Source: Candidatus Latescibacterota bacterium (lineage in GTDB: Bacteria; Latescibacterota; UBA2968; UBA8231). From it: a stretch of DNA of 64,000 nt. The stretch spans positions 1,696,001-1,760,000 of the forward strand of contig CBDETY010000003.1 of NCBI GenBank assembly GCA_965243025.1. Reading direction: 5' to 3'. Below are positions 4,949-20,837 of this stretch, one piece after another. A model generated the notes under the pieces. The model did no database searches. It saw nothing but the letters and a program-made list of their open reading frames with translations, and was not told the origin of the DNA. Both the position numbers and the translations under genes were made by a program. Each line of letters begins with the position of its first letter. Position 1 is the stretch's first letter.

Positions 4949-5671
4949 GTGAAATACGCCATCCTCGCTGACGTACACGCCAACCTCGAAGCTCTCGAGG
5001 CGGTGCTGATCGCCGCGGAAAAAGAGGGAGCCGATCACTTCGTTGCCGTCGGGGACATCGTCGGCTACGGTGCGGACCCGGTCGCCTGCGTCAACAGACT
5101 GCGGGAGCACGAGTTCGTGTGCGTGCTCGGGGATCACGACCAGGCCCTTGTCGACAGCAGACAGTCCCGAAGCTTGAACGCCTTGGCCCGCAATGCGATC
5201 CTGCGTTCACGCGATCTCGTTTCCGAAACCGAGCTCGACTACATCCGCCACTTCGGCTTCCGGCACGTTGAATTCGATGCTGTTTTCGCCCACGCAAATC
5301 CGGTCCGGCCCGAGAACTGGCTGCACCTGGTTCTTCACCGGGACATCTCCTGGTGTCTCGAGCGGCTGGACTGGAGGGTCGCCTTCGTCGGCCATACCCA
5401 TTACCCGGGGATCTATTGCCGAACCGGAGGCCAGGTGACCTCGCTCACTTCATCGGAAGTCTCGGTGGGACCGCATCGGTATCTCGTCAACCCCGGGAGC
5501 GTCGGACAGCCTCGGGACGGGGACCGCAGGGCCTCGTACGCACTCTGGGATGTTGACTCGGAGTATGTCCAGCTGCGCCGGGTCGAGTACCCCGTCGAGA
5601 GGACGCAGGATAAACTCCGCCAGGCTGACTGGCCCGAATACCTGGCCGAGCGCCTCGGAAGAGGGGAATAG
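4949..5671 (+). CDS. Calcineurin-like metallophosphoesterase (YfcE/MJ0936-like)
   Basis: Motifs DVHAN, GDIVGYG, GDHD, GHTH and NPGSVGQPRDGD. Confidence 0.9.
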   Translation: MKYAILADVHANLEALEAVLIAAEKEGADHFVAVGDIVGYGADPVACVNRLREHEFVCVLGDHDQALVDSRQSRSLNALARNAILRSRDLVSETELDYIRHFGFRHVEFDAVFAHANPVRPENWLHLVLHRDISWCLERLDWRVAFVGHTHYPGIYCRTGGQVTSLTSSEVSVGPHRYLVNPGSVGQPRDGDRRASYALWDVDSEYVQLRRVEYPVERTQDKLRQADWPEYLAERLGRGE

Positions 5672-5677
5672 TCGAGG

Positions 5678-6598
5678 ATGAGGGGCCTTGTGCTGCGGGT
5701 TTCCGGGCTGCAATCGACCGTAGAGGCGGATGGCAGGAGCTGGCAATGCGAGCTTCGAGGCCGGATGAAATCGGGGCCGCGGGAAATCCAGTCTCCGGTC
5801 GCTACCGGGGACTGGGTCGAATTCGAGCCTACGACCGAATCTACCGGCGTTATCGAGGAACGCCATCCCAGGCATTCCAAGCTTTCCCGTGCGATGGCGG
5901 GAAAGCGGCCATGCGAACAGATTCTCGCCGCCAATGTCGATTGCTTCGCCGTGGTCGTGGCCGCCCGTCAGCCAGCCGTCAGCCCGGGGTTCATTGACCG
6001 CGCCCTGGTGATGGCTCAGGAAGGAAAGGTCGAGCCCCTGATCTGTCTCAACAAAATCGACCTCTTGAAGGACCCGGCGGTGCATGAAGTAGTGCGCATC
6101 TACGGGGACCTGGGATACCGCGTACTTCTCACTTCGGCAAGGACGGGGGAGGGGATCGACGCCTTGGCGGAGACGCTGGCCGGCCGCGTGTCGGCGCTCG
6201 TGGGACAGTCCGGTGTCGGCAAATCCACAATTCTCAACTGCATCGACCCGGGCCTCGACCTTTCTACGGCCGGGCTGATGAAAAGGCACGACCGCGGGCG
6301 CCATACCACGACTGCCGTTCACCTTCACAGGCTGCGGCGCGGCGGTTACGTCGCCGATACCCCAGGGGTCAAGTCGCTGCAGCCGTGGGGAATCAACCGC
6401 CGACAGCTCACCAGGTATTTCGTCGAAATGGCGCCCTTGGCCGGACGGTGCCGGTTCCGGGACTGCACCCACATCCGCGAGCCCGGGTGTGCGATTCGCG
6501 ACGCGGTGGAGTCCGGGAGGATAACGGGCGTGCGCTACGAGGGCTTCAAGCGCATCCAGGAAAGCCTTCCGGAGCCGACAGCCGAATGTCGGAACTGA
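5678..6598 (+). CDS. rsgA: Small ribosomal subunit biogenesis GTPase
   Basis: Motifs NKIDL, GQSGVGKST, GRHTTT, DTPG and the CRFRDCTH..EPGC zinc finger. Confidence 0.97.
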   Translation: MRGLVLRVSGLQSTVEADGRSWQCELRGRMKSGPREIQSPVATGDWVEFEPTTESTGVIEERHPRHSKLSRAMAGKRPCEQILAANVDCFAVVVAARQPAVSPGFIDRALVMAQEGKVEPLICLNKIDLLKDPAVHEVVRIYGDLGYRVLLTSARTGEGIDALAETLAGRVSALVGQSGVGKSTILNCIDPGLDLSTAGLMKRHDRGRHTTTAVHLHRLRRGGYVADTPGVKSLQPWGINRRQLTRYFVEMAPLAGRCRFRDCTHIREPGCAIRDAVESGRITGVRYEGFKRIQESLPEPTAECRN

Positions 6599-7533
6599 CG
6601 ATAGATGCGCTGCTGAAACAGTACGGGCGCCCGCTGGGCCTGCGTCTGCTCGCCGGGGACAAGGGGATCGGACGCACCATCAACAGCGCCGACGCCAACC
6701 GTCCGGGGCTGACCCTTACCGGTTTCGTCGAGATCTTCACATTCGCCCCGGTCCAGATCCTCGGCAATCTCGAAATCGACTACCTCCGCAGCCTGCCTCC
6801 GGACCGGCGCCTGCAGGCACTGGAGATCATCTACCAGTTCGAACTCCCCTGTATCGTGGTGACCGGCCGCGGCCGCTTGCTTCCCGAGCTGAGAATCCTC
6901 GCAAACAAGAACAACATCCCCCTGCTCAGAACGGAATTCGACACAACCAAGTTCATCCACCTCCTGCACTTCTACCTCGATCCTGTCTTTTCTCCCCAGG
7001 TCACCATGCACGGCACCCTCGTCGACGTCCACGGAGTCGGCCTTCTCGTCGTCGGTCGCAGCTCCATTGGCAAGAGCGAAATCGGCCTCGACCTGGTGGA
7101 GAGGGGGCACCGCCTGGTCGCCGACGACACCGTTATCATCACCAGGCAGGCCCAGGGCATCCTCGTAGGACGCAGCCCCGAGCTGTTGCAGGATCACATG
7201 GAGATCCGGGGAATCGGCGTCGTCGACATCAAGAGGCTGTTCGGAATCGGCGGCACCCGCCGGCAGAAGAGGGTGGAAGTGATGGTGACCCTGGTAGACT
7301 GGCAGGCGGATTTCGACTACGAGCGCATCGGGATCGACGACAAGGGCAAGCTTATTCTCGGGGTCGAGGTCCCGGAGATCACCGTGCCGATCTTCCCGGG
7401 TAAAAACATCACCGTGATTGCCGAGGCAATTGCCTTCAACTACCTGCTGCGTCTCGACGGCTATCACGCTGCCCAGGAGTTCAACAAGCGGCTGATCAGA
7501 AGGATGCAGCGCAAGAAGCGGGGCGACTCCTGA
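6586..7533 (+). CDS. hprK: HPr kinase/phosphorylase
   Basis: Motifs NRPGL, HGTLVDV, GKSEIGLDLVERGHRLVADD and MEIRGIG. Start moved to ATG 6586. Confidence 0.95.
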   Translation: MSELTIDALLKQYGRPLGLRLLAGDKGIGRTINSADANRPGLTLTGFVEIFTFAPVQILGNLEIDYLRSLPPDRRLQALEIIYQFELPCIVVTGRGRLLPELRILANKNNIPLLRTEFDTTKFIHLLHFYLDPVFSPQVTMHGTLVDVHGVGLLVVGRSSIGKSEIGLDLVERGHRLVADDTVIITRQAQGILVGRSPELLQDHMEIRGIGVVDIKRLFGIGGTRRQKRVEVMVTLVDWQADFDYERIGIDDKGKLILGVEVPEITVPIFPGKNITVIAEAIAFNYLLRLDGYHAAQEFNKRLIRRMQRKKRGDS

Positions 7534-7660
7534 ACCTCCCACATTCCCCGATGCGCGTTGATCTCACCTGGGCCCCGGGGTATTTTCCAACGGATCTCCC
7601 GGCGTTCAGCCCCCCTGCCTTCAATCGGGCCCGCAGCCGTTCATTTCCCAGAGCAGGTCG

Positions 7661-8560
7661 ATGCCCCACCCGGTGTTCGAGCTGGCCATCGTCGGCTCGG
7701 ATCGCATCGCCGAGCACGAAGCTGCAATTCGAAAGCAGCCCTATCTGCACCTGTCAACTCGCATTGGGGAATCACCCACTGACCGGGTATCGAGTTCCGG
7801 GACGTTTGGAGATTTCGATTTCAACGCCGCCGATATCGGAGCTGTCGTCGTCAGCACGCCAGCCTCCGAAAGGGAGTACTGGACTCTCAAGAGCGCTCGC
7901 GCCAACAAGGCCGTCATTGTCGACGGCCCTCCGGCCGGATCGTCAGCGGGACTGCTGGAATTGCGGCGCCTCGACCAGTGCATGGGGGAGCAGGTCCTCA
8001 TGGCCTCGACCGTTCTGTCATCGGACATCGCCAGGGACCTGCTGGCAGCACGCGGCCGCCTCGGGCGCTGCCTGTACATGGATCTCCACATGAGCATTCC
8101 GAAGGAGTCGCTTCCGTCCACCCGTTCGGGGATCGCCTCCCTGGGTGCGACCGAGCTGCTGCTGTTGAGCGAGCGTTTCTCCGGGCCTCTCGATTCCGTC
8201 CACGCCCGCAGCCGCAGCCTGCTGACCAACCGGCCCGGCGAAGACGCGGTCTGGGCAATGCTCCGGTTTTTCAACGGCGTCGAGGGAGTGCTGCAAGTGC
8301 GCGGACTCGACTCCACGGAACGGGCGACAATTACCGTCCATGGGACCGAGGGCACACTGAAGCTGTCGACCAGCCTTTCCCGGCAGACCGGAGAAATACG
8401 GGACAGACAGTACGAGAACCTCGTTCAGGTTCTGACGGGACACGGCAAACCGGCGTGTGGGGTCCGGGACATCCACCGCTGCCTTTTCCTGGGCACCTGG
8501 CTGGATCAGTCGGCCCGCCAGGACCGCGAGCTTTTCAGTTCCGACGTACGGGTTGAGTGA
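7661..8560 (+). CDS. Divergent Gfo/Idh/MocA-like oxidoreductase-fold protein
   Basis: LAIVG, AVVVSTP, KAVIVDGP (EKP-equivalent), EDAVWAMLRFFNG and VHGTEGTL. Confidence 0.6.
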   Translation: MPHPVFELAIVGSDRIAEHEAAIRKQPYLHLSTRIGESPTDRVSSSGTFGDFDFNAADIGAVVVSTPASEREYWTLKSARANKAVIVDGPPAGSSAGLLELRRLDQCMGEQVLMASTVLSSDIARDLLAARGRLGRCLYMDLHMSIPKESLPSTRSGIASLGATELLLLSERFSGPLDSVHARSRSLLTNRPGEDAVWAMLRFFNGVEGVLQVRGLDSTERATITVHGTEGTLKLSTSLSRQTGEIRDRQYENLVQVLTGHGKPACGVRDIHRCLFLGTWLDQSARQDRELFSSDVRVE

Positions 8561-8564
8561 ACCG

Positions 8565-9182
8565 ATGCAGGAGCGCGAACCGGGAGCAAGGCCTTCGCTG
8601 TCCAACCCGGAGACGCCGTCCATCGGGCCGGTCAGATTGGCCCTGATGCTGGCCTCCGGGCTGATGGCCGTGCTCGTTCTGATAAACGCGCTGGGTGGGG
8701 GAGCAACCCCGGTTGACGAGGACAGGTTCCTCGAGCTCGCGCAGGCGGGAGTGGTTGAAAGCATCGTTATCGAGGGGCCGGTGAGTCTGACCGCGGAGTT
8801 GCGCAGCGCTGTCAACTTGCGCGATGCAGGCGACCCGCGCGCCCCCGAATACGTCGAAAACCAGGGAGGAGGGGCGGCCAGCTCTGTCTTCGTCGAGTTC
8901 AGCCAGCCGATCTCCGCGGCGCAGCGGGTGGTGTGGCGCAACCTCGGGATTCCCGTGAGGGAAGGGGAGCCGGGTTCCAGCCGCAGAAGCGGGCTTTGGG
9001 CAGCCATCGTGTTCGGCATGCTCGGTCTGGGGATCTGGCACCTGGTAACCCAGGCGAGAAACAACCTCCGGTTCGGCAGCCCGCGTCAGCTGCTTCAGGA
9101 AGTCGAAAGCCAGTTCCGTGAAGGACTGATCTCGAGGGAGGAGCGCGACCGCAAGGTGGAGGAAATCTCCGCTCGGCTCTGA
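8565..9182 (+). CDS. Two-TM hypothetical protein (FtsH-extracellular-like loop, SHOCT-like C-terminus)
   Basis: Layout is TM, FLELAQAGVVESIVI loop, TM, then QFREGLISREERDRK. Confidence 0.55.
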   Translation: MQEREPGARPSLSNPETPSIGPVRLALMLASGLMAVLVLINALGGGATPVDEDRFLELAQAGVVESIVIEGPVSLTAELRSAVNLRDAGDPRAPEYVENQGGGAASSVFVEFSQPISAAQRVVWRNLGIPVREGEPGSSRRSGLWAAIVFGMLGLGIWHLVTQARNNLRFGSPRQLLQEVESQFREGLISREERDRKVEEISARL

Positions 9183-9202
9183 CTCGCAATGCGTCAAAAA
9201 CC

Positions 9203-11017
9203 ATGAGTCCCAACATATACAGACTGTCGGAGAACGTAATCGGCAAGATCGCCGCGGGGGAGGTGATCGAAAGGCCGGCTTCGGCAGTCAAGGAGCTGGT
9301 CGAGAACTCTCTCGATGCGGGAGCGAAACGCATCAACGTCGACACAGCCGCCGGGGGCCGGCAGCTGATCCGGGTCGCCGACGACGGAATCGGAATGACA
9401 GCTGAAGATGCCTGCCTGTCGGTCGAACGCCACGCCACCAGCAAGATGCGCAGTCCCAGCGACCTGTTCACAATCGACACACTTGGATTTCGAGGCGAAG
9501 CCCTGGCGAGCATCGCCGCGGTTTCCCGGCTGACCATCGAAACCTCCAACGGGGAACAAGGGGAAGGTACCCGGATCGAGGTGGAAGGGGGGGTGCGCAC
9601 CTGTCTCGGCTCAATCGCCAGGGATACCGGGACTACAGTGACTGCACGGAGCCTGTTCTTCAACACCCCGGCGCGCAGGAAATTCCTCCGGCACATGGAC
9701 ACCGAAGCCCGGTACATTACCCGGTGCGTCGCCCAGTTGGCCGTCGCCTATTCCGAGGTAGCGTTCCGTGTGACCCACAACGACCGCGTGACACTCGACC
9801 TGCACCCGGGAGACCGTGCGCAACGCGTCTCCGATGTGGTTTCGGTCGATCCCTCGCTCCTGCTGCACGCAGCCTCCAGAGTCGAGGCCGGAGCAGCTGG
9901 CAGCATCTCAGTTGAAGTGCTGGCAGGATCCCCCCAGACATGTCAGCGCAGCCGCTCCCGGCAGTACGCGACCGTCCGCCGGCGGCCGGTGTACCATCGG
10001 AAGCTGAACTCCGCGGTTTACGGCGCCTTCGGCAGCCTGTTGCCCCATAACGCTCATCCGGTATTCGCTCTCTGGCTCGATATGGACCCCAGGACTGTCG
10101 ACGTCAACGTCCACCCAACCAAGAAAGAAGTCCATTTCTCCTCCGAAGGAGACCTCGTCAAAGCGGTGCAATCCGTTGCGCGAGAGGCACTTGAAATACC
10201 AGAGGCGAGTGGTTTCAAAGGCGCCGCCGGATTCGATTCGCCGGCGGAGAAACCGGATTACGGGAAAGCCGCCGGGACTGCCGGTCACAGCAGAGTCCTG
10301 GAAGCGCCCATGGATCCGTTCGGCACCGAGACCTCTGCAGACCTCGATCAACTGTCGCTTTCCCTGTTGCCTCCAGCCAGGCTGGAGACCTCGGGAAGTA
10401 CGGAGCAACCGCTGACGCCGCAGGAGGTTTTTCAGCTGTCATCGGCCGCCGAATCAACCCCGATGTGGCAGATTCACAACAAGTACATCGCGGCGCCGAC
10501 CTCCGACGGCATCGCCATAGTCGATCAGCACGTTGCCCACGAGCGCATCCGTTTCGAGGAAGTGCTTGAGGATCTGGAAGGGGAGCAGAGGATCTCCCAG
10601 CAGTTGCTGTTGCCTCTGACACTCGATTTGTCTCCAGTGGAGATGGTCGCATTTCAGGATGCCCGGCCCCTGTTCGAAAGAATCGGTTTTGGAGCGCGTG
10701 AATTCGGTCCGACCAGCCTGATTGTCGATTCCATCCCGAGCGAGCTCAGGAACTGGGGAGACGGCGCGGTATTTCAGGAGATCATCAGCGACCTGATCGA
10801 GGAGAACGAGACCCGTGCGACCACGCAGCAGGCCCTTGCTGCCTCGATGGCCTGCCACACTTCGATCCGGGCAGGAGACCGACTCAACCAGGAAGAGATG
10901 AGGACCCTGGTTCAGCGGCTGCTCAAAGCCCGGGAGCCTTTTTCCTGTCCCCACGGTCGGCCGATAATTATCCGGGTTCCACTCAGCCACCTCGACAGGC
11001 TGTTCGGCCGAACCTGA
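9203..11017 (+). CDS. mutL: DNA mismatch repair endonuclease MutL
   Basis: Motifs IAAGEVIERP, GFRGEAL, DVNVHPTK, DQHVAHER and CPHGRP. Confidence 0.98.
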   Translation: MSPNIYRLSENVIGKIAAGEVIERPASAVKELVENSLDAGAKRINVDTAAGGRQLIRVADDGIGMTAEDACLSVERHATSKMRSPSDLFTIDTLGFRGEALASIAAVSRLTIETSNGEQGEGTRIEVEGGVRTCLGSIARDTGTTVTARSLFFNTPARRKFLRHMDTEARYITRCVAQLAVAYSEVAFRVTHNDRVTLDLHPGDRAQRVSDVVSVDPSLLLHAASRVEAGAAGSISVEVLAGSPQTCQRSRSRQYATVRRRPVYHRKLNSAVYGAFGSLLPHNAHPVFALWLDMDPRTVDVNVHPTKKEVHFSSEGDLVKAVQSVAREALEIPEASGFKGAAGFDSPAEKPDYGKAAGTAGHSRVLEAPMDPFGTETSADLDQLSLSLLPPARLETSGSTEQPLTPQEVFQLSSAAESTPMWQIHNKYIAAPTSDGIAIVDQHVAHERIRFEEVLEDLEGEQRISQQLLLPLTLDLSPVEMVAFQDARPLFERIGFGAREFGPTSLIVDSIPSELRNWGDGAVFQEIISDLIEENETRATTQQALAASMACHTSIRAGDRLNQEEMRTLVQRLLKAREPFSCPHGRPIIIRVPLSHLDRLFGRT

Positions 11018-11061
11018 AAAACCCTAACGAGGATGGTTCTGGGGAATCGATCAACCTTGGA

Positions 11062-11089
11062 AAGTCACATAAACAACTTTATGTAAATA
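11062..11089. other. dif-like tyrosine-recombinase site A (11-6-11)
   Basis: AAGTCACATAA-ACAACT-TTATGTAAATA. The right arm resembles XerD arms (TTATGTTAAAT, TTATGTAAACT). Confidence 0.65.
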
Positions 11090-11164
11090 ACCAACCCGGA
11101 ATCAACCAGCATTTGGAGATATCCGGGGACTCCTGGGAAGAATGGTATTTTCCCGGCCGGTAAA

Positions 11165-12094
11165 TCAGGACCCGTACCGGATTCTCGCTACAGCTCCTCG
11201 TGCCGCCAGCTGCCCACGTGCATAGTGACCGGGCATTTGCGGCGAGGTCCAGCGGCCCGCAGTCTGCATTTCCGCTATCGAGGCGCCTCCCGCCGCAAGC
11301 GACTGGGCCCCGCCAACCCGCAGGGAGTGACCGGAGACCTTACCGTCGATTCCCGCGGCCGCACATCGGTGTTTGATGATGTTCCGGACGGATACCGTGC
11401 TCAAAGCCTTGCTTCCCACCCGGTCGCCGCGGAACAGGCGCCTGAACACCGGCCCGTCGTCAATTCCGGCCGCATCCATCCAGGCTTTGATCTTCCACGC
11501 AGTCGGCACCCCGAGAAACAGAACCACTCCGGATCCTTCCTGATCCGTTTTGGAGTGGTGGATCGTCAACCTCGCCGAGCCGTCGCTTTCAAAGGAGATG
11601 TCGGGTACCTGTACGCCGGCAACCTCCGAAACGCGGAGCAATCCGTCGGAAGCGACCGCCAGCAGGGCGGAGTCGCGCAAACCAGCCAGGGAATCATCCG
11701 AGGCAACCGCGGCCGCCGCATCCGCCTGGGCGAACTGGACCCCCTGCACCTGACCCCGACCGCGGTCCTTGCCCGCACGGCGAATTCCCGCCAGCACCCT
11801 GTCCGTTGCCGGACCGGCCGGGGAGGGCTCGCCCTGCATCCTTGCACGGAACTTTACCGCGGCGACTGCCTGTGAACAGGTGGCCGGAGACTTTCCTGCC
11901 ATGTGCAGTCCCGCGATATAGTCGGCAAGATACACATCTGTCAGCGGGAGGTCGCCGAGATGGCTGTCGATCTTTGCCAACGCATGCCGGTAGGCCCTGA
12001 GCGTGTTTTCCGAGACGCTGGCATGAACCAGGTCCCGGATGGCGCCGGAATTGGCGAGCTCTTGCGGAGAGTTCGCGGTGATCAGATTACCCAT
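11165..12094 (-). CDS. Cre-like tyrosine recombinase/integrase
   Basis: N-terminal SENTLRAY. Catalytic set present: R (LLRVSE), K (SKTDQ), HxxR (HSLR), W (GRW) and Y (HYAR). Confidence 0.93.
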   Translation of the reverse strand: MGNLITANSPQELANSGAIRDLVHASVSENTLRAYRHALAKIDSHLGDLPLTDVYLADYIAGLHMAGKSPATCSQAVAAVKFRARMQGEPSPAGPATDRVLAGIRRAGKDRGRGQVQGVQFAQADAAAAVASDDSLAGLRDSALLAVASDGLLRVSEVAGVQVPDISFESDGSARLTIHHSKTDQEGSGVVLFLGVPTAWKIKAWMDAAGIDDGPVFRRLFRGDRVGSKALSTVSVRNIIKHRCAAAGIDGKVSGHSLRVGGAQSLAAGGASIAEMQTAGRWTSPQMPGHYARGQLAARGAVARIRYGS

Positions 12095-12099
12095 GCCAT

Positions 12100-12149
12100 C
12101 CTGGTTGATTAGTTTTGATAACGTGAATTATACAAACTAATAATCCAGG
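12100..12149. repeat. Imperfect 50-bp palindrome containing an 11-6-11 recombination-site core (site B)
   Basis: CCTGGTTGATT-AGTTTTGATAA-CGTGAA-TTATACAAACT-AATAATCCAGG. Confidence 0.7.
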
Positions 12150-12155
12150 CGTCAA
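12127..12155 (-). promoter_or_regulatory. Sigma70 promoter of the recombinase
   Basis: Minus strand TTGACG-N17-TATAAT, ending about 32 nt upstream of the ATG. Confidence 0.8.
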
Positions 12156-12384
12156 CGCGGGGGGTTTCCCGGCTTGTGGTTTGTTGGAAAACACCGTCGC
12201 TTCGGGACTCCTTTTCGGATCTGGAATATTACTTTTGATAATTACTTTCGGAATTTGTTATCGCCGTTGATGTCCTGTGCGAATCAACTCCTGACCAGCC
12301 CCGGGTTCCAATCCTTGGTTTGAGCTGCCCTGGGGGCGGACATGCCAATAACCTCGATATTTACAAAATGAAATTTACATGGCA

Positions 12385-15318
12385 TCAGACCACTATATTG
12401 ACGATCCTCCCCGGGACATACACAAACCGCTTGGGTACGGCCGAATCCGGAAGGTACCGGCGAACGTTGTCCAGTTTCAGAATCAGATCCCTCGCTGTTT
12501 CTTCGGTGATTCCAGCCGGAACTTCAACACTGGCCCTTACCTTGCCGTTGACCTGCACGGGCAGGGTCAACGTATCCTCGACCAGCAGATCTTCCTGTGG
12601 TTGCGGCCAATCCTGGACCGACAAATCCCCGTCGCCGAAACCCCAGATGCTCCACACCTCCTCTCCAAGGTGCGGGGCAAACGGCGACAGCATCAAAACC
12701 AGAGATCGCGCCATCTCCTCGGAAACAGCCTCTTTCCCCACCAGGTCGTTATTCAGCTCGATCAGCGCCGCGATGGCTGTGTTGAGCCGCAATCCCTCGA
12801 TATCCTCGGTCACCTTGGCCATTGTCCGGTGGAGCTTCCTGCGCAGAGCGACATCCTCCTCATCCTTTCCCGGAGCCATCCTCCTCGCCGTTCCATCCTG
12901 GGAAACCAGGTTGCGCCACACGCGCTGCAGGAAACGCTGCATCCCGCGTATTCCCTCCATGCTCCACGGCGTGCTCTGCTCGAGGGGGCCCATGTACATC
13001 TCGTACAGGCGCAGGGTGTCGACCCCGTACTCCTCCCCGACTTCTTCGGGAGGCAGCCCGTTCTTGTAGCGTTTCCCCATCTTGCCGCCGGAACGGGTCA
13101 GCGCCTCACCGGTCTGCGAGTGGAAAGGCCGCCCGTCGCGCAGCTCGACCTCGCGGATGTCGACGTAGACTCCGCGGGCATCCGTGAACGCATCGGCGGT
13201 TATCATTCCCTGGTTGAACAGTTTCTTGAACGGCTCGGGTGAAGAGACGTGGCCCAGGTCGAACAACGCCTTGTGCCAGAACCGGGAATACAACAGGTGG
13301 AGCACGCCGTGCTCGGCGCCGCCGATATACAGATCGACCGGCATGAAATGCCGCTCCCTGGCAGGGTCGCAGAATGCCTGGGTGTTGGCTGGATCGATGA
13401 AACGCACGAAATACCAGCAGGACCCCGCCCACTGGGGCATGACGTTCAGTTCCCGCTCGCACTGGGTTCCATCCATGCTGACGAACCGCCAATCGTCCGC
13501 GGCGCGTCCCAGCGGCAGCGAAACCGGAGTGTCGGGATCATCGGAGGTCTGCGGACGGAAGTCCTCCATCTCGGGAAGCAGGACGGGAACCTCGGTAGCG
13601 ACTGAAAAGCCGTCCGGAGTGGTGGCCAGCGGGAAGGGCTCTCCCCAGTATCTTTGCCTGGAAAAAATCCAGTCGCGCAGCTTGTAGCGGACCGCAAACC
13701 TTCCAAGGCCGGCCCTTTCCAGTGCGGAAGTGATTTTTTCCCTGGCCTGTTGCGTCCCCAGGCCGGTGATGGAGAACTCGCTGTCTCCATCGGCGGGAGA
13801 ATTGATGCTGGTCCCCTCCCCTGTGAAGCAACCCCCCTCTTCGGTTCTGTCGCTGTCCGGCGCCTGGACGACCTGGATCACCTCCAGGCCGTAGTTTGAG
13901 GCAAACTCGAAATCGCGGTCGTCGTGCCCGGGAACCGCCATGATCGCCCCCGTCCCGTATTCCATCGAAACGTAGTCGGCGACAAAAACCGGAATGACAG
14001 CTCCGCTGGCAGGGTTGCGGGCCCATATTCCAGTGAAAACCCCCGACTTCTCGCGCTCGTCGAATTCCCTTGCGACCTGAGTGGCTTCCGCTGCCGCGGC
14101 GACATAGTCCGCGACCGCTACCCGAGGTCCTGAGATGGTTCCCTTTTTCCAGACCTCTTTCGTGCCTTCGGGCCAGCGTGCCGGCACGAGATACGAGGAG
14201 TGTTCCGGATCGAGAAGCCGGTGCCCGGGAGCGACCGCCATGAAGGTCGCTCCGAACAGGGTGTCGGGACGCGTGGTGAAAACTTCGAGGCGCGCGGCGA
14301 TTTCCGTGGAACCCGGTTTCAGCAGGTCGAACAGGATTTCCGCCCCCCCGCTGCGGCCGATCCAGTTCCGCTGCATCAGCTTGATCGGTTCGGGCCAATC
14401 CAGTGCGTATCTGCCTCCGCGTCCGTCTGGCAGATCCGCTGAATCCAGATCCTGCAACAGGCGGTCGGCGTAGTCGGTAATGCGAAGCATCCACTGCCTG
14501 AGCGGGCGCCTGTACACAGGAAAATCGCCGATCTCGCTGCGGCCTTCTCCGGTGACCTCCTCGTTGGCCAGGACCGTTCCCAGCCCGGGACACCAGTTGA
14601 CCGTTACTTCTTTCTGATATGCCAGCCGATAGTTGTTGAGCACGGCAGCCCGCCCGGCCTCGGTCAGTTCGTACCAACCGGGGTTCGAACCGCTCCCGTT
14701 CTGCCTTCGCGAAATTGAGGCAAGGGTTTCGAGATCGCCGTCTGAAAGGGCACGACGTCCACGGATAAAAGCCTCTTCCAGCTCCCGGATCGGCACGGCC
14801 TTGCCCTTGATCTCGCGACCTGCCGCATCGAACTGAATAGCTTCCGGATCGAACCAGCAGTCGTAGAGCTGCAGAAAAATCCACTGGGTCCAGCGGTAAT
14901 ACTCTGCGTCCGAAGTCGCCAGCTCCCGATCCCAGTCGTAGGCCAGGCCCAGGACCTGAAGCTGTCCGCGCATGCGGTCGATACACTCGCGTACCGCCGT
15001 GGACGGATGCACGTTGTTTGCGATCGCGTACTGTTCCGCCGGCAGGCCGAAGCTGTCGAACCCCATCGGATGCAGAACGTTGAATCCCCGCATCCTCTTG
15101 AAACGGCTGTAGATGTCGCTGGCGATATAACCCTTGGGATGGCCTATGTGGAGCCCGTCGCCGCTGGGATACGGAAACATGTCGAGGACATAGCACTTTG
15201 GCCGGGTATCGGTCGTGCGGTCTTCCCCGGGACCTTGCGTCCTGAACGTCTTCTCCCCCAGCCAGCGTTCGCGCCAGCGGCGTTCTATCTCCTGGTACTG
15301 GTAACTTCCCCTCTTCAT
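12385..15318 (-). CDS. leuS: Leucine--tRNA ligase
   Basis: Motifs MFPYPSG.GLHIGH, FTTRPDT, LRDWIFSRQRYWGEP and the KMGKR variant of KMSKS. Start set at ATG 15318. Confidence 0.97.
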   Translation of the reverse strand: MKRGSYQYQEIERRWRERWLGEKTFRTQGPGEDRTTDTRPKCYVLDMFPYPSGDGLHIGHPKGYIASDIYSRFKRMRGFNVLHPMGFDSFGLPAEQYAIANNVHPSTAVRECIDRMRGQLQVLGLAYDWDRELATSDAEYYRWTQWIFLQLYDCWFDPEAIQFDAAGREIKGKAVPIRELEEAFIRGRRALSDGDLETLASISRRQNGSGSNPGWYELTEAGRAAVLNNYRLAYQKEVTVNWCPGLGTVLANEEVTGEGRSEIGDFPVYRRPLRQWMLRITDYADRLLQDLDSADLPDGRGGRYALDWPEPIKLMQRNWIGRSGGAEILFDLLKPGSTEIAARLEVFTTRPDTLFGATFMAVAPGHRLLDPEHSSYLVPARWPEGTKEVWKKGTISGPRVAVADYVAAAAEATQVAREFDEREKSGVFTGIWARNPASGAVIPVFVADYVSMEYGTGAIMAVPGHDDRDFEFASNYGLEVIQVVQAPDSDRTEEGGCFTGEGTSINSPADGDSEFSITGLGTQQAREKITSALERAGLGRFAVRYKLRDWIFSRQRYWGEPFPLATTPDGFSVATEVPVLLPEMEDFRPQTSDDPDTPVSLPLGRAADDWRFVSMDGTQCERELNVMPQWAGSCWYFVRFIDPANTQAFCDPARERHFMPVDLYIGGAEHGVLHLLYSRFWHKALFDLGHVSSPEPFKKLFNQGMITADAFTDARGVYVDIREVELRDGRPFHSQTGEALTRSGGKMGKRYKNGLPPEEVGEEYGVDTLRLYEMYMGPLEQSTPWSMEGIRGMQRFLQRVWRNLVSQDGTARRMAPGKDEEDVALRRKLHRTMAKVTEDIEGLRLNTAIAALIELNNDLVGKEAVSEEMARSLVLMLSPFAPHLGEEVWSIWGFGDGDLSVQDWPQPQEDLLVEDTLTLPVQVNGKVRASVEVPAGITEETARDLILKLDNVRRYLPDSAVPKRFVYVPGRIVNIVV

Positions 15319-15363
15319 CTTTTTTTGTCCGTCAAGTTCCAGTCCGCCGGTACGTGGACTCAC

Positions 15364-16656
15364 TCAAGGATACAACCGCTGCAGCGTGCGCGGAAACGGA
15401 ATGGTCTCGCGCACGTGCCTGATTCCGCACAGCCACCCTACCACGCGTTCTATCCCCATCCCGAAACCGGCGTGCGGCACCGATCCGTACCGGCGCAGAT
15501 CGAGATACCACTCGAATGCCGACCTCGGCAGGCGGTGTTCTTCGATACGCTCCTCGAGGATCCGGAGATCCTCTTCGCGCTGGCCTCCTCCGACGATCTC
15601 ACCGTATCCCTCGGGAGCGAGCATGTCGACGCAGAGAGCGAGCTTGTCGTTCTCCGGATCGCGCTTCATGTAGAAGGCCTTCACCTCCGCCGGGTATCGA
15701 TGCACGAGGACTGGCGACGTGAACTGCTCGGAAAGAACGGTTTCGTCATCCCCGCCGAGATCGGCCCCCCACTCGATATCGCTGCCATTGCTCCGGAGAT
15801 TTTCCACCGCTTCGTCGTAGGTCATGCGGGGAAACGGCTTGGTTACCGCTTCCAGGGGACCGGGGTCGCGCTCCAGCACGGAGAGCTCGTCGCGTCCCTG
15901 TTCGAGCACGCGCTGGACCACGTAGCAGAGGAGGTCTTCGGCCACCTGCATGTTGCCGTCGAGGTCGCAATAAGCGATCTCCGGTTCCATCATCCAGAAC
16001 TCAGTCAGGTGCCGCCGCGTCTTTGACTTTTCCGCTCGAAAGGTCGGGCCGAGACAGTACACTTTTCCGAAGGCCATGGCCGCCGCTTCCATGTACAGCT
16101 GGCCGCTCTGGGTAAGGAAGGCAGTGTCTCCGAAATAGTCGGTCTCGAACAGCGTAGTGGTTCCCTCGCATGCGGCAGGAGTCAGAATCGGGGCGTCGAT
16201 CAGGATGAACCCCTCGCGGGCCATGAAGTCGCGGCATGCCTGGATTACGTAGCTGCGGATTCTCAAGGTCGCGTGGGGGCGCGAGGAGCGCAGCCAGAGG
16301 TGTCTGTTCTCCATCAGAAACGACACCCCGTGGTCTTTTGGTGAGATCGGGTATTCGGCGGCCTCGTGAACCGCTTCGATCGAGGAGACTCCCAGTTCGT
16401 GGCCGAGTGCGGAACGCTCATCCCGGCGCACCTCTCCCCTGACGACAATCGCCGACTCCTGGGGCAGGTTGCCGGCGCGCTCGAACGCCTCGTCACCGAC
16501 ATCCTCCTTGAACAGCACGCACTGAATGAGGCCGGTTCCGTCCCTGACCTGGAGAAAGTGGAGCCTCCCGCTCGACCGCTTGTTGTAGAGCCACCCCCGC
16601 AATTCGACTTCGCGGCCCTCAAAAGCAGCGATTTTCCGAATTTCTACTCGTTCCAT
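15364..16656 (-). CDS. asnS: Asparagine--tRNA ligase
   Basis: Motifs [34 protein letters not shown] and [11 protein letters not shown]. Confidence 0.95.
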
Positions 16657-16709
16657 AATGCGTAGAAGGGATTGTCGTCACCCGCCGCCCCCGGTGGGGA
16701 TTTACAACC

Positions 16710-16747
16710 AAAAAGACTACCGAACAGAAACCTGGGCGGTAGTCTTT
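16710..16747 (-). terminator. Intrinsic terminator downstream of pnp
   Basis: Minus strand stem AAAGACTACCG...CGGTAGTCTTT running into a T-tract. Confidence 0.7.
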
Positions 16748-16788
16748 GTCAGTGCCCCTGGAGCAAGGGCGGTGTTCGCCGGACCCGG

Positions 16789-18906
16789 TCAGCGGCTTTT
16801 TTCGAGGTTCCTTTCCCGGTTGCGCCGATTATTCGGCCTGTCGAGTGTTGCCTTGTGGCTGAGTCGGATTTTCCCCGAGTTGTCGATTTCGAGAACCTTT
16901 ACGGCAATTCTTCCACCTTCCTCGACGACATCTTCGACTGATTCGACCCGCTTGTGGTCGAGCTCGGAGATGTGGAGGAGACCTTCCTTTCCTGGAAGGA
17001 TCTCGACGAAGGCTCCGAAAGGCATGATGCGCTTGACCGTACCTTCGTACTGCTGGCCGATCTCGGCATCGGCGGTGATCGCCTCGATCATCTCCCGGGC
17101 GCTGGCCGCGGCGCCCGACTCGACGGACGAAATGGTAATCTTGCCGTCGTCCTCGACGTTGATGGTAGCCCCCGTCTTTTCAATCTCCCGGATGGTCTTT
17201 CCACCCGGACCGATGACTGCTCCTATCTTCTCGACATCGATTTTCATGAACTCGATGCGCGGGGCGAATTCGGACAGCTCCTGGCGGTGGCTTGCTATTT
17301 CCTCGTTCATGGCCTCGAGGATCTGAAGACCGGCCTCGCGGGCACGAGCGAATGCCTCTTCGAGGATTCCGATCTCGACACCCTGGATCTTGTTTTCCAT
17401 CTGAACCGCGGTGATCCCGTCGACGGTTCCAGCCACTTTCAGGTCCATGTCTCCGAGGAAATCCTCGGCTCCCTGGATGTCGGTCAGCAGCTCCCAATCA
17501 TCCCCTTCGCTGATCAACCCGACCCCGGACGCGGTGACCGGGTTCTTTATCGGCACCCCGGCATCCATCAGCGCCAGCGAACAACCGCATACAGTCGCCA
17601 TCGAGGTCGATCCATTGGACTCCTCGATGTCGGAAACCAGGCGGATTGTGTAGGGAAAGGAGTCCACCCCCGGGACCACGGGCTCGATGGCGGTTTCGGC
17701 CAGGTGGCCATGCCCGATCTCCCGCCTTCCGGGCCCGCGCGGGAACGATACTTCCCCGGTGCTGTAGGAGGGAAAGTTGTAATCGAGGAAATAGGATTTG
17801 AACGACTTCCCGCTCAGGTCGTCTATCATCTTCTCGTCGAGCTTGCTGCCCAGGGTCGCCACGCACAGGGCCTGGGTCTGGCCACGGGTGAACAACGCTG
17901 ACCCGTGTGCTCTCGGAAGTATCTGTGTTTCACATGTGACCGTTCTGACCTCATCGAGAGCGCGGCCATCTATGCGGCGCTTTTCCTCGAGGACCATGCG
18001 CCGCATGTCCGCTTTGATAAGTCCGTAAATGATGTCGTCGATCTGCTGGTCCGATTCCGGGAAGCGCTCGGCCAGAGCTTCACGCGTATCCTTGTAGATT
18101 CCATCGACGAGGTCGTGGCGCTCTTCCCGGCTGGTGGTGTGGTTGGCTTCAGTTATGCGCCCTTCAGCCAATTCGCGAACCGCAGCTTCGAGCTCGGGGG
18201 CAACAGCCTGCCCGACAAAGGCCATCTTCTCCTTGCCGGCCAGCGAAACAAGCTCTTCCTGAAGGTCGATCAGTTTCACGATATGCTCATGACCGAACTT
18301 CAATGCGTCTATCAGATCCTTTTCGGAAACCTCGTGAGCTCCGCCCTCGACTGTCCCTATGGAATCCCTGGTTCCAGACAGGATAAGGTCCATGTCGCTT
18401 TCGTCCCGCTGGCCCATCGTCGGGTTGATGACGAATTCGCCGTCGACGCGGCCGACCCGGACGGCACCGAGTGGTCCGGCAAAGGGTATGTCCGAAAGGC
18501 CCAGTGCCGCGGAGCTGCCCACCATTCCCAGAACATCCGCGTCGTTTTCGTTGTCAGACGACAGAATGGTTATGAAAACCTGAACCTCGTGGGCAAACCC
18601 TTTCGGAAACATCGGGCGGATCGAGTGATCGGTCAGTCTGGCGCTGAGGGTCTCTTTCTCCCCCATCCTCCCCTCGCGGCGAAAGAAGTTACCGGGGATC
18701 CGCCCGGCTGCATACGACTTCTCCCGGTACTCCACGGTCAAAGGGAGGAAGTCACGGTCTGTCGCGTTCTGCGACCTGCAGGCGGTGACAAGACAGATGG
18801 TATCCCCATAGCGAATCCATACCGCCCCATGCGCCTGTTTGGCAACCTTTCCGGTCTCCAGGGACAGCGTGCGTCCACCTAGTTCAGCTTCGACTTTGTG
18901 AATCAT
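16789..18906 (-). CDS. pnp: Polyribonucleotide nucleotidyltransferase
   Basis: Motifs FLPLTVEY, FTRGQTQ, RREIGHG, ESNGSTSMA and GDMDLKVAG, plus KH and S1 domains. Confidence 0.98.
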   Translation of the reverse strand: MIHKVEAELGGRTLSLETGKVAKQAHGAVWIRYGDTICLVTACRSQNATDRDFLPLTVEYREKSYAAGRIPGNFFRREGRMGEKETLSARLTDHSIRPMFPKGFAHEVQVFITILSSDNENDADVLGMVGSSAALGLSDIPFAGPLGAVRVGRVDGEFVINPTMGQRDESDMDLILSGTRDSIGTVEGGAHEVSEKDLIDALKFGHEHIVKLIDLQEELVSLAGKEKMAFVGQAVAPELEAAVRELAEGRITEANHTTSREERHDLVDGIYKDTREALAERFPESDQQIDDIIYGLIKADMRRMVLEEKRRIDGRALDEVRTVTCETQILPRAHGSALFTRGQTQALCVATLGSKLDEKMIDDLSGKSFKSYFLDYNFPSYSTGEVSFPRGPGRREIGHGHLAETAIEPVVPGVDSFPYTIRLVSDIEESNGSTSMATVCGCSLALMDAGVPIKNPVTASGVGLISEGDDWELLTDIQGAEDFLGDMDLKVAGTVDGITAVQMENKIQGVEIGILEEAFARAREAGLQILEAMNEEIASHRQELSEFAPRIEFMKIDVEKIGAVIGPGGKTIREIEKTGATINVEDDGKITISSVESGAAASAREMIEAITADAEIGQQYEGTVKRIMPFGAFVEILPGKEGLLHISELDHKRVESVEDVVEEGGRIAVKVLEIDNSGKIRLSHKATLDRPNNRRNRERNLEKSR

Positions 18907-19151
18907 CTCTTTCTTCTCGTTCTCTTTTTTTGAGTTTTGTGTGCTTCACCACGGATGCCGGATGTCCCGGTTCCTGTATGCCTCCCAATGGCTGGCGCAA
19001 TCAACGGCCCTCACGAAATACCCTCCGCAAGCGACGATATCGATGGAGCACGGATTTCAGGCACGCCTCCAGCCGGAGAAAACCGGAGGCGACTCTTCCA
19101 GCTTATTTCGGGAGTCCTTGCTTGTGGAGAACCTCCCTCCCTGACCTTTGA

Positions 19152-19421
19152 TCAGCGCCGAAGTTGGAGATCCTTGATGAGCTGGGCGTACCCTTCGGGG
19201 GTTTTTTTCTGGTAGTACCTCTGCAGCCGCCTCCGCCGCCCGATCAATTGCAGCAATCCGCGACGTGTCGCGAAATCCTGCCGGTGAGTCTGCAAATGGG
19301 TCGTGAGCTTCACGATCCGTTCCGACAGGATGGCAATCTGCACCGCCACAGCTCCCGAGTCGGTTTCGTTCCTTCCGTACTTGACGGTCAGTTCCCTGGT
19401 TCGCTCTGCAGTAATGGACAA
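19152..19421 (-). CDS. rpsO: 30S ribosomal protein S15
   Basis: DSG..AVQIAILSERI..LT.HL..H..D..TRRGLL; 89 aa, upstream of pnp. Confidence 0.96.
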   Translation of the reverse strand: MSITAERTRELTVKYGRNETDSGAVAVQIAILSERIVKLTTHLQTHRQDFATRRGLLQLIGRRRRLQRYYQKKTPEGYAQLIKDLQLRR

Positions 19422-19457
19422 AGTCTCCCTCCATGAGAATCGGAATTGGTCAATCCT

Positions 19458-19853
19458 TCACTTGTCGCCTTGTTCAGTGGACTGAATTACCTCTCGCGCT
19501 CTCTCGACGTCTTTTTCCAGCTGTTGAACCAAGGTCTCGAGGCTGGGAAAGCGCCGTTCATCCCGCAATTTCTCGACTGTTCGGATTCGCAAGGTCTTTC
19601 CGTACAGATCTCCGGCGAAATCAATTATATGGACCTCAACAGCCAACTCGCCGGATGAAAAGGTCGGCCTGACCCCCACGTTTACGACCGCGGCATGCTC
19701 CATTCCTGCTCCTGCCCAGAATGCCGTTGCGGCATATACTCCGGTCTCGACAATCCTCCTTACGTCCCCCTCGACATCGAGATTGGCAGTAGGAAATCCG
19801 AGCGTCCGTCCCCGACCGTCCCCAGCCACCACTTTTCCAGTCACCGCGGGCAT
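19458..19853 (-). CDS. Monofunctional riboflavin kinase (RibF C-terminal domain only)
   Basis: Motifs GRTLGFPTAN, GVY, NVGVRPTF, EVHIIDF..DLYG and LRDERRF. Only 131 aa. Confidence 0.9.
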   Translation of the reverse strand: MPAVTGKVVAGDGRGRTLGFPTANLDVEGDVRRIVETGVYAATAFWAGAGMEHAAVVNVGVRPTFSSGELAVEVHIIDFAGDLYGKTLRIRTVEKLRDERRFPSLETLVQQLEKDVERAREVIQSTEQGDK

Positions 19854-19892
19854 CCGGGCGGTATCCGGAAAACCTGTGCGCGGGCAGGGCCG

Positions 19893-20837
19893 TCAGTCCT
19901 CAACTCCATCCGGCAGCAGAACCTTTGCCGGCCGTAACCTCGAACGGCTGCCGCCGACCCAGGCCCCAAGACCACACAGACGTTCTGCTTCGTCATATAC
20001 TACGCATGTCTCCACATTCGCGTCTTCCACCACACCGGTTGTTGACGCAGGTTCGCCAACCGATTTCGTGGCGACGGTCCCGCCCTGCAGAAACGTCTTT
20101 GCTTCCCGGGGCGCCAGCCTAACCGCAGGAAGCGAACTCAAAGCGCGGGCAGTCGGGACCAGGATTTCCTCGAGCCCGCTCTCATCTACGGCCTTCTGCA
20201 CCTCCTCCACAGTCACCGCAACCGACAGGTCCAAGCTCCCGACTCTCGTCCTGCGCAGGTCGACCACATACGCACCGCACCCCAGGGCGTCGCCAATATC
20301 CATCGCCAGCGAACGGATGTAGGTCCCCTTGGAACAGACCACGCGCATTTCGAAGTCGGGGAATCCGTACTTCAAAACTTCGAGCTGCATTATTCGAACC
20401 GGCCTTGCTGGTATCTCTACCGCCTTTTTCCGGCGAGCGAGATGGTAACTGCGAACCCCGCCGACTTTCACCGCGGAGTGAGCCGGGGGGATTTGCCAGA
20501 TCTCGCCGCGGAAGCGGCCCACAACCGCGCCGGCCTCATCCTCGCTCGGAATTCGCATTTCCGGCACCGGTTCGATGACGCCTTCGGAGTCCCCGGTATC
20601 GCTCCTGGCTCCGAGGCGCAGACGCACCAGGTATTCCTTGTCTGTCCCCGCAATTGTTTCACTCAGCCGTGTATAGGTGCCAAAGCAGAGCACCAATACC
20701 CCTGTTGCGAGCGGGTCGAGAGTACCGCAGTGACCGATGCGTTGCATACCAAGGGTCCGACGCATCCGGGCGACAATATCATGCGACGTCGGACCTGCTT
20801 CCTTGTCAATGGCAAGGATTCCTCGACCGGGCTTCAT
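19893..20837 (-). CDS. truB: tRNA pseudouridine(55) synthase
   Basis: Motifs GHCGTLDPLATGVL, CSKGTYIRSL and LRRTRVG. Confidence 0.96.
   Translation of the reverse strand: MKPGRGILAIDKEAGPTSHDIVARMRRTLGMQRIGHCGTLDPLATGVLVLCFGTYTRLSETIAGTDKEYLVRLRLGARSDTGDSEGVIEPVPEMRIPSEDEAGAVVGRFRGEIWQIPPAHSAVKVGGVRSYHLARRKKAVEIPARPVRIMQLEVLKYGFPDFEMRVVCSKGTYIRSLAMDIGDALGCGAYVVDLRRTRVGSLDLSVAVTVEEVQKAVDESGLEEILVPTARALSSLPAVRLAPREAKTFLQGGTVATKSVGEPASTTGVVEDANVETCVVYDEAERLCGLGAWVGGSRSRLRPAKVLLPDGVED

Follow-up and report, generated by a model that had tools for sequence, protein, structure and literature searches.

We identified a gene for a Cre-like tyrosine recombinase and, directly upstream of it, a lox-like palindrome (site B), which together appear to form a self-contained Cre/lox-type module at the replication terminus of a Candidatus Latescibacterota chromosome, probably acting between sister chromosomes. 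We put the probability of this reading at roughly one half. The module lies between mutL and leuS in a window of 64,000 nucleotides (nt), the whole stretch of DNA that was analysed, which corresponds to positions 1,696,001-1,760,000 of contig C3 in a 6.8-Mb assembly; positions below are counted from the first nucleotide of the window unless a contig or locus is named. Judged from its sequence features, the module takes a slot that is bounded on one side by a predicted dif site (site A) and on the other by a degenerate, inverted dif copy (site C). This slot is filled in most sister genomes by an unrelated Xer-like recombinase, and this comparison suggests that the locus is a naturally swapped chromosome-resolution module. 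Papers are cited below by PubMed Central number.

A Cre-like recombinase gene between mutL and leuS

The Cre-like gene is the one long open reading frame with a family match between mutL and leuS. It shares its strand with leuS, which lies upstream of it, and converges on mutL (Table 1). In a search of solved structures, Cre chains gave the best match to the predicted protein (E 2.6e-21 over residues 56-305), with XerD at 8.9e-4, and the NCBIfam Xer models reached just 40-45 bits against cut-offs of 220-335. Residues R154, E157, K182, H256, R259, W282, and Y291 align with Cre R173, E176, K201, H289, R292, W315, and Y324. Judged by these matches, the protein is nearer to Cre than to Xer proteins or integrases.

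At E <= 1e-40, the protein was found in nine of 61 related genomes (the present one included), and in only four of the nine does its gene lie between leuS and mutL, namely in the present genome, in G001 and G002 of the same genus (84-85% identity to the present protein), and in G019 of another genus, g18 (63%). Comparison with locus L006 of a related genome gave a ratio of nonsynonymous to synonymous substitution rates (dN/dS) of 0.099 for the recombinase gene (84.1% protein identity), next to 0.126 for mutL (84.6%) and 0.164 for leuS (84.1%), and comparison of the recombinase gene with that of G002 gave 0.095. With a dN/dS of 0.10, the Cre-like gene is intact, resident, and under purifying selection. 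A scan of metagenome contigs with the protein yielded six loci, at 79% identity or less over fragments and none of them in a mutL-leuS context, which were left unused.

Several homologs are found outside the slot. Paralogs with 64-67% identity (L002 at C3:5932173-5933081 of the present genome, L031, L032, L036, and L040) have in common a conserved upstream stretch of about 200 nt in which no lox-like palindrome is present; the genus carries them in multiple copies (several in G001), and they probably belong to a mobile element. The present genome also carries a paralog with 52% identity (L003) and a fragmented copy (L004/L005). Further homologs occur at fixed spacing on short records titled second chromosomes, with three copies 9,605 bp apart on OY760735.1 (23.1 kb; L012-L014) and two copies 25,240 bp apart on CBDHFB010000005.1 (37.8 kb; L019-L020). 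Both records look like small circular replicons assembled as concatemers.

Site B, a lox-like palindrome in the promoter of the gene

The core of site B stands 13-14 nt from the start codon of the Cre-like gene, with a GATA/TATA motif adjoining its spacer, and its arms appear to resemble the loxP half-site. The arm motif of B, TTASTTTKKWTAA, has three copies in the 6.8-Mb assembly, the small contigs C1 and C2 included, and all three are at the locus; the third copy, a half-site, aligns where G001 and G002 have their single site. In G001, G002, and G019 themselves, the B motif is near control level. The search for Cre-type targets in PMC10250229 looked for arms of 13-15 bp around an 8-bp spacer, with at most two asymmetries and within 1 kb of the gene, and site B falls within these limits. 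About half of the recombinase/site pairs predicted in that study proved active.

The gene-distal arm of B holds the -10 box and the spacer of a predicted sigma-70-type promoter of the recombinase gene. The promoter scan found two such sites against a mean of 0.4 in shuffles, and visual inspection shows -35 and -10 boxes arranged alike in G001, G002, and G019. Each of these three genomes has a B-equivalent site beside the start codon, and palindromes also occur 5' of several distant homologs (Table 1). Site B is a conserved lox-like palindrome that is specific to the locus and overlaps the promoter of the gene.

A first-pass annotation, made from the letters of the window alone, had placed the gene, sites A and B, and a 10-bp inverted pair at coordinates where all of them are present. 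Its description of a catalytically complete Cre-type recombinase agrees with the full Cre residue set in the alignment and with the Cre chains as best solved relatives. It recovered the core of site B, which is in fact a larger site with 22-nt arms, and it missed the half-site and site C. Its proposal to look for the same motifs beside homologs was borne out by sites conserved next to the orthologs, and the new recombinase/target pair that it envisaged is plausible.

We hypothesize that the recombinase binds both arms of B and would so limit its own transcription. Because each chromosome carries a single complete B, recombination of B with B would be confined to the B sites of sister chromosomes or to a chromosome dimer, and such recombination at the terminus could resolve or unlink dimers alongside XerCD/dif. 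Cre-loxP placed at dif resolves chromosome dimers in E. coli (PMC2680272), and difSL directly precedes xerS and may belong to the promoter of that gene (PMC1914069); these two precedents make a role in dimer resolution plausible.

An alternative for the palindrome is that B serves as an operator for autoregulation and nothing else, the true substrates of the recombinase being elsewhere, for example on plasmids or mobile elements outside the assembly. The overlap of B with the -10 box and spacer of a promoter that agrees with the consensus at 11 of 12 positions would fit such an operator, as would the poor symmetry of the B sites in G001 and G002, and the assembly does hold two small contigs (C1, 14.6 kb; C2, 11.1 kb). 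However, no further B arm motif is present in the 6.8-Mb assembly, these two contigs included, and Cre-type recombinases usually have their target beside their own gene (PMC10250229). An operator would also leave unexplained the position at the terminus, which was kept across what appear to be two independent arrivals of the gene (see below), and we consider this alternative unlikely.

Site A, a predicted dif site, at the replication terminus

Site A, which is intergenic and 75 nt 3' of the Cre-like gene, is the predicted XerCD-type dif site of this chromosome. In PMC2731167, dif sites are recognized by an 11-6-11 layout, an intergenic position, uniqueness in the genome, and a location at the turn of the skew. 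Site A has the 11-6-11 layout, its core CATAA-N6-TTATG occurs once in the genome, and it has in common with the E. coli dif of that paper six of 11 positions in the XerC arm and eight of 11 in the XerD arm. The orthologous site of G002 (ATTTACATAA GAAATA TTATGTGAAC) is in the same place and is the sole CATAA-N6-TTATG of that genome, while G019 has a very canonical site at the A position (read on the other strand, TAGGCGCATAA TATAGA TTATGTTTGTT). In five genomes of two other families, matches to the family dif consensus were at control level.

Genes for an XerD-like protein (284 bits; curated cut-off 329.6), adjoining uvrC, and for an XerC-like protein (155 bits; curated cut-off 335) are present in the genome, and among 41 genomes of the family such genes were found in 39 and 38, respectively. 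XerC and XerD genes normally lie far from dif, and here the XerC-like and XerD-like genes are at 5.01 and 6.50 Mb of C3. Site A is the same in sequence and place whether it lies beside a Cre-like gene or, in sister genomes, beside the Xer-like recombinase, and it therefore most likely belongs to the XerC/XerD-like proteins. In G001, a deletion of about 45 nt has removed the spacer and the XerC-type arm of A (L006:4925-5035; also L024), and the G001 assembly, which is 93% complete in 10 contigs, gave no dif-like match better than three mismatches to the family consensus. The XerC-like, XerD-like, and Cre-like genes of G001 are intact and its Cre-like site is kept despite the truncated A.

At 20-kb resolution, the cumulative GC skew along C3 is lowest near 4.88 Mb and highest near 1.68 Mb. 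At 2-kb resolution the skew is flat from about 1.65 to 1.70 Mb and falls from about 1.705 Mb, with site A (C3:1,707,062) at the right edge of the plateau. For the relatives G002, G004, and G019, we sampled twenty 20-kb pieces each. The skew of G004 flips across the homologous locus, from +0.096 in the last piece before it to -0.055 in the next, and the same change, less sharp, is present at the locus in G002 and G019. This turn of the skew in all four genomes places the locus at the replication terminus in each.

Site C lies at the other end of the slot and is degenerate, with TGTAA for CATAA and TTTTG for TTATG. Its position and orientation are those of the dif-like site beside leuS in genomes that carry the Xer-like recombinase, and G001 and G002 keep sequence similar to it. 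A and C are inverted to each other with their XerD-type arms pointing inward, and on these features the dif-like partner of A is site C, not site B. The pattern ATAA-N6-TTAT occurs four times in the 6.8-Mb genome, against about 5.5 expected from base composition, and two of the four are sites A and B, 1,049 bp apart and bracketing the Cre-like gene, which is more than chance. The two dif/lox-like sites that were first seen to bracket the gene are thus both real and non-random, but they differ in kind, A being dif and B lox-like. Their pairing as flanks of one unit does not hold, since A is constant and the 5' palindrome varies with the type of recombinase.

The interval is colinear throughout in a strain-variant contig (run X7), whose spacers differ in A (11074 and 11076), B (12125), and C (12371). 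In this contig, the XerC-type arm of A differs at 11068, the outer part of a B arm lacks one base (12103), and the stretch from B to the half-site has several small deletions; the 13-bp inner arms of B match exactly. Joints of excision or inversion, for which the first-pass annotation had suggested looking, were not found at A, B, or C in the contigs of four runs over 10600-12800, and since contigs drop rare forms this is weak evidence for the absence of an excised or inverted form. The sole joint in these contigs connects 12570 to 12668, within leuS, and comes from an unrelated contig.

An unrelated recombinase in the same slot of sister genera

The occupant of the slot in most sister genomes is an unrelated Xer-like recombinase of about 315 amino acids (aa), here called XerX (e.g. 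L057:1541-2485 in G004; L074-L103). XerX reaches 126 bits against the XerC model, has 28% identity to the XerD-like protein of the present genome, and coexists with XerC-like and XerD-like genes. Exactly one match was found in 60 of 75 other genomes of the family, and the 92 genomes searched from 13 further families of the phylum gave none. XerX was likewise not found in the three genomes of the present genus or in G019, which are the genomes with a Cre-like gene in the slot, and eight of ten genomes in the genus of G019 have it. The slot is thus occupied in relatives by another recombinase, and the empty mutL-leuS junction that the first-pass annotation had proposed as a check was seen in none of the sister genomes examined.

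Five genomes of the family gave neither the Cre-like gene nor XerX. In G013, G014, and G017 (L164, L165, and L166) the contig ends at most 383 nt from the 3' end of leuS, in G014 just past a dif-like site; G036 has other genes after leuS, and G005 gave no match. These contig ends and other contexts make the absence of XerX there uninformative. The breaks at the slot in G013, G014, and G017 might reflect a repeat or population heterogeneity.

Thirty XerX loci were fetched, 19 with mutL and leuS, nine with one of the two, and two with neither. In 21 of the 30, a dif-like site of the form ATTTACATA(A/T)-N6-TTATG follows XerX at no more than 330 nt on the 3' side (reversed-pattern control, 1/30), and of its two arms the XerD-type one is better conserved across these 21 loci. 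Another dif-like site, inverted, was found within 1 kb 5' of XerX in seven loci (control, 0/30), and a conserved palindrome, ACTAACGATAA TACCTG TTATCGTTAGT, stands 5' of XerX in 22 (control, 1/30). The likeness of Cre-like and XerX loci points to a common plan, in which a palindrome followed by a recombinase gene lies between two dif-like sites. Within this plan, the 5' palindrome changes with the type of recombinase and the arms of the dif-like site stay of the same kind.

XerX is co-oriented with mutL in 23 of the 24 loci holding both. The exception is G012 (L076/L054, G012:C1:982159-983098), where the XerX-dif unit is inverted and XerX converges on mutL, which implies that the cassette between dif-like sites can become inverted in the course of evolution. 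The Cre-like gene and site A of the present genome have the same orientation to mutL as XerX and dif in G012.

This arrangement also bears on whether the Cre-like protein has taken over from XerX and works on site A, by itself or together with a Xer protein. Relative to its neighbouring gene, site A is placed and oriented like the dif-like site 3' of XerX, and by hand count its ATTTACATAA arm shares eight of 13 positions with each arm of B. However, both arms of the dif-like site are of the same kind beside XerX and beside the Cre-like gene, so that the protein which reads the site should be one that both groups share. Moreover, site A read as a 13-8-13 site is symmetric at only nine of 13 positions, and G001 has lost half of A with its Cre-like gene intact. 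A takeover of site A by the Cre-like protein is, in our view, very unlikely.

A maximum-likelihood tree of 42 members of the Cre-like family bears on the history of the slot. Copies from the slot in the present genus group together (support 100/99), their sister group (94/84) being the multi-copy paralogs found in this genus, and the copy of G019 falls in a different clade (100/100). This suggests two separate recruitments of a Cre-like gene into the same slot.

Arrays carrying the XerX palindrome arm were observed away from the slot. Direct repeats of about 47 nt that include the arm recur every 2-5 kb in L181 (G010:C1:5653000-5667000) and L182 (G016:C2:1133000-1152000), where they bound cassettes with genes, largely for accessory enzymes, that code for heparinase II/III-like, PhyH, cupin, CN-hydrolase, GH2, sulfatase, S15 peptidase, and Y2-transposase proteins. 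These arrays may be a gene-cassette system that uses XerX. The XerX arm motif had no match in the present genome, and no such arrays were found for the B motif. With respect to XerX, the 6-bp spacer of its palindrome occurs in both orientations (CAGGCA or TGCCTG), as in L079, L092, L094, and L103 versus L084, L095, L098, and L099, and both are found within one genus (g14), as if the site or an adjoining segment had flipped.

Resident module or mobile cassette

The main rival to a resident resolution module is that gene and palindrome are the cargo of a cassette like a dif module or an integrative mobile element exploiting Xer recombination (IMEX), moved into the slot or inverted by the host XerCD via the dif-like sites on its flanks and without a chromosomal role; in a variant, site B and the Cre-like gene are perhaps a plasmid multimer-resolution unit. 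The bracketing by A and an inverted, degenerate C with inward XerD-type arms is what such a cassette would show, XerX is bracketed alike in seven of the 30 loci, and G019 has three dif-like sites around its Cre-like gene. The inverted unit of G012 shows that such cassettes flip, the tree suggests two independent arrivals, and homologs are multi-copy in the genus and also present, as tandem copies, on small contigs. Against mere cargo, the dN/dS of the gene is no higher than that of its housekeeping neighbours and gene order around it is conserved throughout the genus. The module was seen in no other context, the B arm motif is present only at the locus, and the Cre-like copies elsewhere have no dif-like flanks. 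Moreover, inverted flanking sites allow inversion but not excision, and the cargo model accounts for the arrival of the module while leaving a later function possible. We regard a pure cargo status as rather unlikely, though as the most serious competitor.

The first-pass annotation had offered two options, a selfish single-gene element and a dedicated single-recombinase resolution system. A selfish element that excises or moves itself via A and B would explain why two ATAA-N6-TTAT sites bracket one recombinase gene, and paralogs are indeed scattered through the genomes of the genus. However, A and B differ in arms and spacers, A is the predicted dif of the family and older than the gene, and the sister genomes examined have XerX where an empty site would be expected. 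The gene is in the same position in three genomes of the genus, and this synteny, the low dN/dS, and the lack of any excised or inverted form in the contigs of the four runs weaken the selfish option to the point where we consider it highly improbable. The dedicated single-recombinase resolution system survives as the leading reading.

Several observations weigh against a Cre/lox module that resolves dimers at the terminus. The per-base skew maximum is 39 kb from site A, on the flat part of the curve; the distance from skew maximum to dif in E. coli K12 is 39,100 bp (PMC2731167). With an intact dif and genes for XerC-like and XerD-like proteins, the chromosome does not need a second resolution system, and the known single-recombinase systems replace XerCD and do not join it (PMC1914069; PMC9765430). 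The displaced XerX may itself not be a resolution enzyme: its palindrome arm is multi-copy, with 31 copies in G010, 77 in G016, 41 in G023, and 19 in G020 against 1-7 in controls, and it bounds cassettes, so that XerX may have a role outside dimer resolution. Symmetry is much lower in the B sites of G001 and G002, at no more than eight of 13 positions in a scan, and the conservation of B could be partly conservation of the promoter, with B an operator only. Finally, the missing dif of G001 may simply be unassembled, and the tree was midpoint-rooted and has several long branches.

With these points in mind, we still favour a self-contained Cre/lox-type module at the terminus and extend it only tentatively. 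In this extension, the terminus would hold an exchangeable, dif-bracketed slot in which a Cre/lox module replaced a Xer-like ancestor twice; the module would now resolve or unlink dimers beside XerCD/dif, and in G001, which lacks a complete dif, it would possibly be the main system.

Other features of the interval

The 10-bp inverted pair that was first described as hugging the gene is present, and the repeat finder extends it to 13 nt at 92% complementarity with 12098-12110. It is not kept in the orthologous loci of G001 and G002, and the strain-variant contig has lost one of its bases, at 12103. The pair is real but of doubtful meaning and probably fortuitous. No tRNA genes were found in 5000-20000 of the window, in line with the earlier statement that tRNA att features are lacking.

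Table 1. Features of the mutL-leuS interval, with palindromes next to Cre-like genes in this and other genomes
Feature	Position	Strand	Sequence	Remarks
mutL, left flank of the slot	9203-11017	+		TIGR00585 463.6 bits (cut-off 180); Pfam MutL_C, DNA_mis_repair
Site A, dif-like 11-6-11	11062-11089	+	AAGTCACATAA ACAACT TTATGTAAATA	XerC-type arm, spacer, XerD-type arm
Inverted copy of the outer 10 nt of the left arm of site B	11100-11109		AATCAACCAG	Partner CTGGTTGATT at 12101
Cre-like tyrosine recombinase gene	11165-12094	-		309 aa; Pfam Phage_integrase 1.4e-12
Site B, lox-like palindrome	arms 12100-12121, 12128-12149			22-nt arms, 82% complementarity (repeat finder)
Site B, 13-8-13 core	12108-12141		ATTAGTTTTGATA ACGTGAAT TATACAAACTAAT	11/13 positions symmetric
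Site B read as 11-6-11	12111-12138		AGTTTTGATAA CGTGAA TTATACAAACT	
Predicted sigma-70-type promoter of the recombinase gene	12127-12155	-	TTGACG-17-TATAAT	11/12 consensus positions
Half-site, third copy of the B arm	12221-12243	+	CTGGAATATTACTTTTGATAATT	Repeat finder; no partner arm
Site C, degenerate dif-like	12359-12385	+	ATTTACAAAA TGAAAT TTACATGGCAT	Inverted relative to A; abuts leuS stop
leuS, right flank of the slot	12385-15363	-		TIGR00396 890.3 bits (cut-off 548.4)
Palindrome, present genome			TTAGTTTGTATAA ttcacg TTATCAAAACTAA	14 nt before ATG
Palindrome by Cre-like gene, G019			TTACTTGGTATAA tatccc TTATAGAAAGTAA	
Palindrome by Cre-like gene, G001			AAACTTTGTATAA ttacag TTAACAAAAGTAA	
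Palindrome by Cre-like gene, G002			AAACTTCGTATAA ttgtag TTAACAAAACTAA	
Palindrome, L016 (distant homolog)			TAACTTCGTATAA ttacag TTATTGGAAGTTG	
Palindrome, L026/L027 (distant homologs)			TTATTTCCGATAA gtggat TTATCGGAAATAA	Perfect palindrome

Comparison with known systems

Our full-text searches listed no publication on Latescibacter together with dif or a tyrosine recombinase, or on a Cre-like recombinase at a terminus or in dimer resolution, with the roughly 500 predicted pairs in Table S2 of PMC10250229 outside this comparison. If the favoured reading is true, a family of recombinases best known from phages and plasmids has here taken on dimer resolution or provides a backup for it. The terminus beside dif emerges as a slot for the in-place swap of recombinase/target modules, which bears on the origins of the XerS and XerH modules. 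The locus also provides a compact Cre-type recombinase with a predicted 34-bp target, of which G001, G002, and G019 hold diverged orthologous pairs. Moreover, XerX, its palindrome, and the cassette arrays bounded by XerX sites may be a separate, undescribed gene-cassette system.

The closest comparison is to Cre/loxP of phage P1 and to Cre-type recombinases in general (PMC10250229), with Cre as the best structure match and a full catalytic set, a 13-8-13 site with two asymmetries that lies within 1 kb of the gene and has GATA/TATA by its spacer, and no accessory gene. Unlike Cre/loxP, the present module is chromosomal, at the terminus and beside dif, syntenic and under selection rather than on a phage or plasmid; its site overlaps the promoter of its own gene, and it is known here from sequence.

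Single-recombinase systems offer a second parallel. In XerS/difSL of streptococci and lactococci and XerH/difH of epsilon-proteobacteria, the gene adjoins a single chromosomal site at the terminus (PMC1914069; PMC9765430), and in XerS/difSL the site is immediately 5' of the gene, possibly within its promoter; apparent acquisition as a single unit is a further common feature. The recombinases of those systems are Xer-like and their lineages are without canonical XerCD/dif, whereas here the recombinase is Cre-like and coexists with XerC-like and XerD-like proteins and a predicted dif. As in XerCD/dif (PMC2731167), site A has an 11-6-11 layout with conserved inner arms and a better-kept XerD-type arm, and it is unique, intergenic, and at the turn of the skew. 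Unlike in XerCD/dif, A has within 1.3 kb a further, inverted dif-like copy and the gene of a recombinase from a different family.

A short gene cassette bounded by XerC/XerD-type sites also resembles the plasmid dif (pdif) modules of Acinetobacter. The bounding sites of pdif modules are in inverted orientation, and IMEX elements have no recombinase of their own and are flanked by direct repeats. The present locus differs from dif modules and IMEX in that its cargo is a recombinase with its own target, its place is the chromosomal dif, one of the bounding sites is degenerate, and no other contexts were seen.

Finally, the engineered dif::loxP chromosomes of E. coli supplied with Cre (PMC2680272, citing Leslie and Sherratt 1995 and Capiaux et al. 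2002) indicate that a Cre/lox pair at the terminus can resolve dimers. That construct is artificial and replaces dif, whereas the module described here is natural and lies beside dif. If our reading is true, the locus would be the natural counterpart of this classic experiment.

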